Shown here piece after piece: positions 300 to 688 of a DNA stretch of 7,833 bases. The DNA comes from a virus (Duplodnaviria; Heunggongvirae; Uroviricota; Caudoviricetes). A program made the translations under genes and the position numbers. The stretch is taken from positions 1-7,833 of IMG/VR virus record IMGVR_UViG_638341082_000003. One strand, written 5' to 3'. Numbering within the stretch: the stretch's first letter is position 1; each line of letters opens with the position of its first letter. The notes under the pieces were generated by a model. It ran no database searches, was not told where the DNA came from, and saw nothing but the letters and a program-made list of their open reading frames with translations.

Positions 300-390
300 A
301 GTTTTCACGTCAAAGGGGAAATTGCGATTAGTGAGTAGGGAGAAAATCCTCGTGGGAAAGTATAAAAGATTCTTTTTGAGGTTGTCCATT

Positions 391-504
391 ATGAAAGGTA
401 TTGAAATGGAAACTCCCGCGAGCCTTGATTTGACAAGGGCTGCGGCCTTTGCAATTCGCCTTGTGGCGGTCGCTGTTCTGATTTGGGCTGTGCGTTGGTG
501 GTGA
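391..504 (+). CDS. Hypothetical small membrane peptide (37 aa from ATG 391; the ORF track's TTG start at 322 is less likely)
   Basis: ATG 391 lies 9 nt after GAGG (378-381). The product MKGIEMETPASLDLTRAAAFAIRLVAVAVLIWAVRWW has a C-terminal hydrophobic helix. Stop TGA 502-504 sits 1 nt before the next ATG. No homolog recognised. Confidence 0.3.
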   Translation: MKGIEMETPASLDLTRAAAFAIRLVAVAVLIWAVRWW

Positions 505-505
505 T

Positions 506-688
506 ATGGCGCGAAAACACTGGACACACAGAATGCCGCGAACGGCGGTGAAACGGGCACTGGTAGCGATACTGGTGCCTTTTTTATTGGTGGGGTGCGT
601 CAGCCTGGATAAGGCGCGCCAGCTTTTCGATACCGCGTCTCAGGTCTGTGAAATTGTCGACGGTGTTCGGCAGTGTCTGCAGAACTGA
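506..688 (+). CDS. Putative small lipoprotein (60 aa; alternative start at Met10, ATG 533)
   Basis: Basic N-terminus (KRA), hydrophobic stretch LVAILVPFLLVG and lipobox L-V-G-C point to a signal peptidase II substrate. The mature part is about 29 aa with two further Cys. It is tightly coupled to the upstream small ORF. Confidence 0.4.
   Translation: MARKHWTHRMPRTAVKRALVAILVPFLLVGCVSLDKARQLFDTASQVCEIVDGVRQCLQN

Follow-up and report, generated by a model that had tools for sequence, protein, structure and literature searches.

A predicted outer-membrane lipoprotein in the place of Rz/Rz1 at the end of the lysis cassette of a lambdoid prophage

Results

The stretch of DNA analysed here (the window, 7,833 nucleotides, positions 1 to 7,833 of the IMG/VR virus record IMGVR_UViG_638341082_000003) is part of an E. 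coli lambdoid prophage, and the region in question, downstream of the endolysin gene, is the distal end of its lysis cassette. Two small open-reading frames (ORFs) lie there in tandem, ORF1 (352-504), which codes for a membrane peptide, and a second ORF (506-688), which codes for a prolipoprotein. Both are real genes under purifying selection and recur in hundreds of enterobacterial prophages, and at the junction where the lipoprotein gene begins in the window, related prophages carry the spanin genes Rz/Rz1. The cassette probably ends in two independent genes, a lysis lipoprotein of the outer membrane (OM) that replaces Rz/Rz1 and works without an inner-membrane spanin (i-spanin), and ORF1 as a portable addition. 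The order of the cassette is Phage_holin_8, Phage_holin_3_7, M15 endolysin and then the ORF1/lipoprotein region. A sequence-only reading of this DNA had placed two ORFs after the lysis terminator and before cos; both are present, with a further ORF (927-1256) intervening, and their conservation in related prophages is borne out by the recurrence just described.

The lipoprotein gene in the Rz/Rz1 slot

Two prophages of Yersinia enterocolitica (L098 and L099) have the same holin pair, a GH108 endolysin, the same terminator, ORF1 and an identical GGTGGTGATATG junction. What begins at the junction there is a 149-aa Rz (PF03245), in which a Pro-rich Rz1 is embedded. Since the same terminator, ORF1 and junction lead to Rz/Rz1 in Yersinia, the lipoprotein occupies the spanin slot. 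GER2 (L108, MG710528) has ORF1 followed one base later by Rz/Rz1, again with an identical junction into Rz, and ~1.2 kb downstream of ORF1 and the intact Rz/Rz1 it retains an unannotated, decayed copy of the lipoprotein gene (4358-4540) with two in-frame stops and a frameshift. In HK639, homologues of the same holin pair are followed by an endolysin and then by two genes annotated as spanins. The order in L071 (holin, holin, GH108 endolysin, terminator, ORF1, lipoprotein, bor on the opposite strand, Nu1) is that of lambda, with the lipoprotein in the place of Rz/Rz1.

The lysis region of the window is 91-96% identical to those of the Shiga toxin (Stx) phages phiP27 (Stx2e) and phiSTEC1575-Stx2k, and ~70 complete E. 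coli genomes contain prophages 99.6% identical to it. The window endolysin, which closes the holin-holin-endolysin block, shares 95% identity with phiP27 L30. No Rz/Rz1 homologue was found in the complete phiP27 genome, where the best tblastn hit was a 16-residue match (E 0.014), and a rule-based six-frame lipobox scan of that genome returned only the lipoprotein gene and the 275-aa L05 near int. In a survey of 279 Stx phages the Rz pham was present in 277, and the metallopeptidase-endolysin pham was present in two, confined to cluster C (PMC8136144). The two Rz-less Stx phages are presumably the two with the metallopeptidase endolysin.

A place within the lysis cassette would also suit a lysis regulator, antiholin-like or resembling Lcc6 or P2 LysA, in phages that have no OM-disruption protein, and small lysis proteins with a single transmembrane domain (TMD) are known, such as Lcc6 in LambdaSo. 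The LT-II prophages SerU-LTIIb (L104, 3326-3603) and Rac-SA53 (L105, 3326-3416) fit such an arrangement, as they keep the same holin pair and a GH108 endolysin followed directly by LT-II enterotoxin genes, with neither lipoprotein nor Rz in the slot. A regulatory role is nevertheless unlikely to account for the lipoprotein, because it is Rz/Rz1 in particular that alternates with it at an identical junction, GER2 has Rz/Rz1 and only a decayed copy of the lipoprotein gene, the gene is independent of the type of holin and endolysin, and a lipopeptide sorted to the OM is badly placed for controlling a holin of the inner membrane. For ORF1 alone a regulatory role is reasonable, and it is the one adopted for that gene below.

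The lipoprotein gene and its product

The 60-aa lipoprotein ORF opens at ATG506, one base after the ORF1 TGA, and ends at 688, with a lipobox LVGC (Cys31) and a 30-residue mature part that contains Cys48 and Cys57; this agrees with the sequence-only reading, which had described an ORF 1 nt past the stop with the same lipobox and two more Cys. It is matched over its full length by phrog_7528 (E 1.5e-35, annotated as of 'unknown function'), and homologues are found in E. coli, Salmonella, Citrobacter, Cronobacter and Lelliottia. In pairwise comparisons with nine relatives the ratio of non-synonymous to synonymous change (pN/pS) was 0.21-0.49 for the whole gene, 0.16-0.43 for the mature region and 0.14-0.55 for the first 17 codons, with two exceptions in the last of these, L002 (0.97, from 1.5 synonymous changes) and L071 (zero synonymous changes). 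Synonymous changes in these 17 codons leave Arg, Lys and Pro in place, and the n-region is long for a signal peptide, basic and conserved (M-x-R-K-H-W-T-H-R-x-P-R-x-A-x-K). The h-region and lipobox are nearly invariant (LVAILVPFLLVG before the C), with a pN of 0 for the h-region against six of the nine relatives, 0.034 against L002 and L071 and 0.409 against the divergent L092. The best-conserved part of the precursor is its signal peptide. A GGTGG Shine-Dalgarno sequence is conserved before ATG506 in every genomic arrangement; in loci without ORF1, GGTGG or AGGTGGGG precedes the lipoprotein ATG. The pN/pS of the first 17 codons and the conserved GGTGG together support ATG506 as the start. The start chosen by PGAP, ATG533, is less likely.

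Conservation of this region could in principle belong to RNA or DNA elements, namely the two hairpins and the mosaic junctions, with one or both ORFs not translated. Two very stable hairpins are indeed present, and the nucleotides of the signal peptide are unusually conserved, with synonymous divergence below that of the rest of the gene. This explanation is nonetheless highly improbable given the excess of synonymous change and the conservative replacements in both ORFs, the ORF1 indel that keeps the frame, the conserved Shine-Dalgarno sequences and start codons, the divergent lipoproteins that keep the lipobox and Cys pattern despite differing nucleotides, and L092, which keeps the protein without the hairpin.

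A rule-based check found a lipoprotein signal (MARKHWTHRMPRTAVKR-ALVAILVPFLLVG-C) with Val and no Asp at +2, conserved across the family, and a best 13-residue hydropathy window of 2.9 from residue 20; Val at +2 predicts sorting to the OM. Cys48 and Cys57 are nearly invariant, and the C-x16-C-x8/9-C spacing is retained in the divergent members P0151, P0154, P0162 and P0167. AlphaFold2 modelled residues 12-59 as a single continuous helix with a predicted local distance difference test score (pLDDT) of 72. The mature part is amphipathic in all branches of the family, with a hydrophobic moment (muH) of 0.45-0.62 (window 0.53, Rz1 0.37, ColE1 Kil 0.30), and has a heptad-like a/d seam of S33, A37, L40, A44, V47, V51, V54 and L58, which Cys48 and Cys57 adjoin. 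Its net charge is about zero, and it is thus not like a cationic disruptin.

Pfam (E <= 1), NCBIfam, PADLOC and PDB sequence searches gave no match for the lipoprotein or for ORF1. Weak matches of the lipoprotein to QseG (E 0.089) and to phrog_1275, 'Rz-like spanin' (E 0.048), were set aside, as they cover the signal peptide only. A profile search of 1.8 billion representatives returned 24 proteins at E <= 1e-3, all of them short lipoproteins of the same family or fragments, and made no connection to known spanin families.

Genomic context across 100 loci

The gene was followed through 100 lipoprotein loci taken from IMG/VR contigs, GTDB genomes, phage records and assemblies. An endolysin gene lies within 1.5 kb upstream in 99 of the 100, and the remaining locus has no upstream sequence. 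The gap between endolysin and lipoprotein is at most 30 nt in 37 loci (30 with an M15 and seven with a GH108 endolysin), which have neither the terminator nor ORF1 in between, and in L088 and L092 the lipoprotein start overlaps the endolysin stop in a 4-nt ATGA; the short gap or overlap and the absence of a terminator indicate that in these 37 loci the lipoprotein is co-transcribed with the late lysis genes. The lipoprotein is accompanied by Phage_holin_8 and Phage_holin_3_7 or by a lambda-S-type Phage_holin_3_1, by M15 or GH108/PG_binding_3 endolysins, and is found in lambda-like, P27/HK97-like and Mu-like phages (the last with GemA, Mor and Portal_Mu). The placement in the lysis cassette and the endolysin upstream in nearly every locus agree with a lysis accessory, which was among the functions proposed by the sequence-only reading.

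The same reading had also proposed a lysogenic-conversion moron, with superinfection exclusion or serum resistance as its function (Bor-, Cor- or Llp-like), or a toxic small-protein pair. The phage lipoproteins Llp, Cor and Bor have exclusion or serum-resistance roles, the upstream terminator isolates the pair from the endolysin in the window and its closest relatives, and Bor itself is in the neighbouring position in L071. These proposals now appear improbable: the gene lies on the strand of the lysis genes, unlike bor, the 37 loci just described have the endolysin at most 30 nt upstream, some of them overlapping, with no terminator, a scan of the + strand from 300 to 506 gave no sigma-70-like promoter, and there was no Pfam, NCBIfam or PADLOC match, nor any to Bor, Cor or defence proteins.

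No ORF with an N-terminal TMD and a periplasmic domain was found near the lipoprotein gene in the window or in L039, L088, L089, L092, L094 and L096. A downstream partner was also sought among the ORFs that follow the gene (721-894 and 927-1256 in the window, and those in L039, L092 and L094), and none of them has a TMD. Across the ~100 loci the lipoprotein thus appears, judging from the sequences, to have no conserved inner-membrane partner, and the earlier statement that no such spanin partner is visible stands for the window and for the relatives inspected.

ORF1 and the two-component spanin of phiP27

ORF1 had been read as a 37-aa hydrophobic peptide (391-504). The single TMD of that reading stands, and the start most likely lies further upstream at GTG352, giving 50 aa, and not at ATG391, which is also the PGAP call. 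The upstream start is supported by the variants in L102, L103 and PhiR12_2, which have an ATG preceded by an AAGGAG Shine-Dalgarno sequence at the codon equivalent to GTG352, by the three differences between the window and Yersinia upstream of ATG391, all synonymous in frame, and by phrog_4493 ('unknown function'), which aligns to residues 1-50 (E 3.2e-24); phrog_1115 also matches. In Yersinia (L098/L099) ORF1 is 89% identical to that of the window, and a hand count of the 37-aa part gave ~16 synonymous and four non-synonymous changes. The N-terminus is basic (net +2), and the single TMD is C-terminal (residues ~29-47 of 50), with only RWW beyond it. Three candidates in this stretch were rejected: the conserved AAGTATAAA upstream of ATG391 as a promoter, which is instead the Lys-Tyr-Lys codons of the longer ORF1; an antisense ORF (243-560, minus strand) that crosses the terminator; and a lone minus-strand promoter-like site (388-359), given that the promoter count was not above that of shuffled sequences.

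The two genes had also been described as a coupled pair; in the wider comparison the pairing is not obligate, as ~40% of the lipoprotein loci, including divergent branches and phiP27, have no ORF1, and ORF1 also precedes Rz/Rz1. Genes of the ORF1 family (phrog_4493 and the longer, probably two-TMD phrog_1115) lie between endolysin and Rz in phages whose holins and lysozymes are unrelated, and stand before canonical Rz/Rz1 in the Yersinia prophages, GER2 and PhiR12_2. By these comparisons ORF1 is a separate, portable gene that does not form an obligate pair with the lipoprotein. The phrog_1115 variant of ORF1 is often followed by a single-TMD peptide of another family, phrog_4906 (43-44 aa, e.g. 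MSDSIVKLVRILSVVVGLSFSAMLVAIFIATAWRVLSLSGLIGG), which precedes the lipoprotein or Rz; members of this family lie just upstream of the lipoprotein in L064, L074, L091 and L034, with another in L107 (2698-2829). PhiR12_2 has the ORF1 family and phrog_4906 together, as do L064, L074 and L091, where the two stand before the lipoprotein.

The adjacency of ORF1 and the lipoprotein gene, which are translationally coupled across a 1-nt gap, raises the question of a minimal two-component spanin, with ORF1 as the inner-membrane subunit (perhaps of type I, with its N-terminus in the periplasm) and the lipoprotein as the outer-membrane subunit (o-spanin), fusing the two membranes. The acidic N-terminal tail of the 37-aa form of ORF1 could face the periplasm, and a two-component system is implied by the catalogue of Kongari et al. 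2018 (BMC Bioinformatics 19:326, PMC6139136), in which phiP27 was assigned in silico a 'separated' two-component spanin that forms a singleton family. The catalogue gives for phiP27 an i-spanin of 64 aa (20348-20542) and, as its only o-spanin, a protein of 51 aa (20706-20861) with a 30-aa mature part, 83% of it predicted helix, and the shortest combined periplasmic length of all spanins, 62 residues (PMC6139136). The window lipoprotein is a homologue of this o-spanin (92% identity) and likewise follows the M15 endolysin; its mature part is of the same length and is also predicted to be helical.

The catalogue i-spanin is a different ORF from ORF1. It is a TTG ORF (L001 4413-4607) that was rejected as a partner, being absent from the window and from most relatives, without a PHROG, and antisense to a 90-aa ORF for which phrog_36812 is a full-length match. 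ORF1 itself has a C-terminal TMD and no periplasmic domain; with hardly any periplasmic residues, its coexistence with complete spanins, including a true Rz, and its absence from ~40% of the loci, it is not the missing i-spanin. The basic N-terminus of the likely 50-aa form would place that end in the cytoplasm with only RWW outside, and the two products together would have at most ~45 periplasmic residues. A two-component spanin built from these genes is therefore improbable, and the 'two-component' label for phiP27 is not supported by the sequences compared here. We also observed that in phiP27 (L001, NC_003356) the RefSeq CDS L32 (NP_543084, 4695-4850) runs in the wrong frame across the lipoprotein gene, and that the real 60/62-aa lipoprotein ORF (L001 4738-4926) is unannotated.

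Two stable hairpins

Both hairpins of the region pass a terminator consensus scan and are very stable. The first (259-310) consists of an A-tract, a 9-bp GC stem with one bulge and a U-tract, with a folding free energy (dG) of -24.4 kcal/mol and a z score of -5.15, and is the element with which the portable 'terminator + ORF1' module typically begins. The same terminator precedes ORF1-family genes in L052, L098, L102, L103, PhiR12_2 and GER2, and is absent where the lipoprotein directly follows the endolysin.

The second (545-592; dG -23.0, z -5.26) lies within the signal-peptide codons. The terminator scan located it at 555-580; a U-run follows it and partly pairs with it, and can also pair with A-rich sequence upstream. 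Of 1000 synonymous recodings of the surrounding 72 nt (536-607, dG -30.5), no more than 0.9% folded equally well. Salmonella, Citrobacter, Cronobacter and Lelliottia all have the hairpin, and L096 has it with a changed inner stem; L094 has a shorter, shifted hairpin only, and in L092 the hairpin is absent and the protein kept. Synonymous divergence is lower in the hairpin stretch than in the rest of the lipoprotein gene, and covariation is modest, with six pairs showing double changes, a count that was reached by 4 of 500 shuffles. This hairpin may be a terminator that is read through only by Q-modified polymerase.

Features of the window and its surroundings

The coordinates of the features are collected in Table 1.

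Table 1 Positions of the annotated features in the window
Feature	Position	Strand	Evidence or remark
M15 (L-Ala-D-Glu type) endolysin, 3′ end, C-terminal 85 residues	1-258	+	PF13539 E 2.7e-13; phrog_465 endolysin E 3.6e-51
Intrinsic-terminator-like hairpin	~259-310	+	terminator scan, folding
ORF1, 50-aa tail-anchored membrane peptide MGKYKRFFLRLSIMKGIEMETPASLDLTRAAAFAIRLVAVAVLIWAVRWW	352-504 (TGA 502-504)	+	phrog_4493, phrog_1115
Coupling junction GGTGGTGAtATG: Shine-Dalgarno-like GGTGG, ORF1 stop TGA, lipoprotein start one base on	497-508	+	
Prolipoprotein signal peptide, aa 1-30	506-595	+	alignment, pN/pS
Conserved RNA hairpin, ~20 bp, codons 14-29 of the lipoprotein gene	545-592	+	terminator scan, folding
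Mature lipopeptide CVSLDKARQLFDTASQVCEIVDGVRQCLQN, Cys31 to Asn60, then stop	596-688	+	phrog_7528 E 1.5e-35
ORF, function not assigned	927-1256		phrog_1935; between lipoprotein gene and cos
Nu1	1841-2386		downstream of the cos region
gpA	2361-4286		downstream of Nu1

By comparison with the left end of lambda, we take the stretch near 1653-1700 to be a lambda-like cos. A palindromic sequence between cos and Nu1 (1744-1820) gave microRNA and small-RNA Rfam matches on both strands (E 0.011-0.6) that are far under the gathering scores and spurious; it is probably part of the cosB/terminase-binding region and not an RNA gene. No credible Rfam match was found in 1-2000 of the window at a permissive threshold. 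Just 3′ of the lipoprotein gene, the sequence at 700-722, GCAGAATATTTTGCTGAAAAATG, also occurs in PhiR12_2, where it directly follows the lysozyme gene R, and in GER2 as GCAGAATGTTCTGCTGAAAAATG, which differs at two positions. It looks like a recombination junction of the lambdoid mosaic. Further downstream, the portal ORF (4486-5124) ends at profile position 171 of 354, and a fragment of the major capsid protein gpE (5376-5840, profile positions 1-138 of 329) is followed almost directly by a tail-fibre gene (6179-7288) and a tail-fibre-assembly gene (7267-7833). The arrangement of 4486-7833 was found in no complete E. coli genome of the collection over at least 80% of 4300-7833, and the window prophage looks defective.

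Discussion

Given the exchange with Rz/Rz1 and the targeting signals, we propose that the prolipoprotein would be exported, receive a lipid at Cys31 and be sorted to the OM, where it would lie in the inner leaflet. There the ~29-residue amphipathic helix, probably oligomerised and disulfide-linked via Cys48 and Cys57, would destabilise the OM once the endolysin has removed the cell wall, thereby serving as the third step of lysis. ORF1 would belong to a 'terminator + small membrane peptide' module inserted between the endolysin and whichever OM-disruption gene follows. Its role would be that of a small inner-membrane lysis accessory, most likely one that adjusts either lysis at the inner membrane or, through translational coupling, the expression of the downstream gene.

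Several points weigh against this proposal. We know of no mechanism by which a 29-residue, approximately neutral, OM-anchored lipopeptide would breach the OM alone, and known spanins must connect both membranes, which the window lipoprotein cannot. The position in the lysis cassette is circumstantial, as antiholins and other regulators also sit there. The slot of the LT-II prophages, which holds neither the lipoprotein nor Rz/Rz1, may mean that the third component is dispensable or that the slot merely tolerates cargo. The sampled loci are closely related, partly redundant and mostly E. coli prophages from IMG/VR. Public databases give no functional name for either window protein beyond 'hypothetical' or 'lipoprotein', and our literature search found no experimental work on any member of the lipoprotein family.

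More tentatively, and with somewhat less than even confidence, the lipoprotein may represent a third kind of OM-disruption protein, apart from spanins and cationic disruptins, which could take two forms. In the first, a single gene would encode a disulfide-stapled, amphipathic coiled-coil lipopeptide of ~30 residues that breaches the OM from its inner leaflet with no inner-membrane partner. In the second, a single gene would provide both ends, with the long, basic, unusually conserved signal peptide, left uncleaved or stable like those of colicin release proteins, acting as the inner-membrane half.

In current models, tailed phages that infect Gram-negative bacteria cannot finish lysis without a spanin as a physical link between the inner membrane and the OM or, rarely, a cationic peptide. 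In widespread prophages of E. coli, Salmonella, Citrobacter and Cronobacter, Rz/Rz1 is replaced by a 60-aa lipoprotein, and the carriers include the Stx2e phage P27 and an Stx2k phage, in which toxin release is by lysis. The family has already been called an o-spanin in silico; what is new here is that it appears to stand in for Rz/Rz1 without any i-spanin. If the lipoprotein is sufficient for OM disruption, no smaller effector of this kind would be known, it would offer a simple means of permeabilising the envelope in a controlled way, and the catalogue entry 'phiP27 two-component spanin' would be in need of correction. If it is not equivalent to a spanin, these phages would be E. coli models of spanin-less lysis.

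Comparison with known systems

Like lambda Rz1 and other o-spanins, the window lipoprotein is, by prediction, a small OM lipoprotein (precursor of 60 aa) encoded just after the endolysin, with conserved periplasmic Cys and a place at the same junction as Rz/Rz1, and it had already been recognised from the sequence as being of spanin size and not proline-rich. It differs from Rz1 in having no sequence similarity beyond the signal-peptide level (phrog_1275, E 0.048) and zero prolines, compared to the 10 of Rz1, and in being predicted as fully helical and amphipathic. Among the hallmarks of o-spanins, the lipoprotein signal, the position and the periplasmic Cys are present and a cognate i-spanin is absent, the gene being neither embedded in an i-spanin gene nor adjoining one.

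With the u-spanin T1 gp11 the lipoprotein shares a single gene in the spanin slot and an N-terminal lipoprotein signal. The u-spanins have a C-terminal TMD and a periplasmic domain of ~90 aa and reach both membranes, whereas the window lipoprotein ends in a polar sequence (VDGVRQCLQN) after 29 residues, and its only hydrophobic segment is the signal peptide.

The colicin lysis proteins, or bacteriocin release proteins (BRPs; Lysis_col, including ColE1 Kil and CloDF13 BRP), are similar in their mature lipopeptide of ~28-30 residues, in the LVGC-type lipobox and in permeabilising the envelope without an inner-membrane partner protein, as we infer for the lipoprotein. The signal peptides of BRPs are stable and contribute to lethality; in the window family, too, the signal peptide seems important, being the best-conserved part. 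The lipoprotein does not belong to Lysis_col, as there is no Pfam match at E <= 1 and the CQANYIRDVQGG motif is absent, and it differs from these proteins in being phage-borne in a holin-endolysin cassette and not in a colicin operon, and in its helical, amphipathic mature part (muH 0.53 vs 0.30) with two extra Cys. Bor, Cor and Llp are set apart by the lack of homology and by the setting of the lipoprotein gene, which shares the strand of the endolysin gene, is directly coupled to that gene in many relatives and has no promoter-like site on the + strand.

LambdaSo Lcc6 and P2 LysA resemble ORF1 in being very small, single-TMD phage inner-membrane proteins that are linked to lysis genes, with most of what lies outside the membrane predicted to be cytoplasmic. 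Lcc6, with no homology to ORF1 shown, has an N-terminal TMD and a gene far from the lysis genes, whereas ORF1 has a C-terminal TMD and always lies immediately upstream of an OM-disruption gene.

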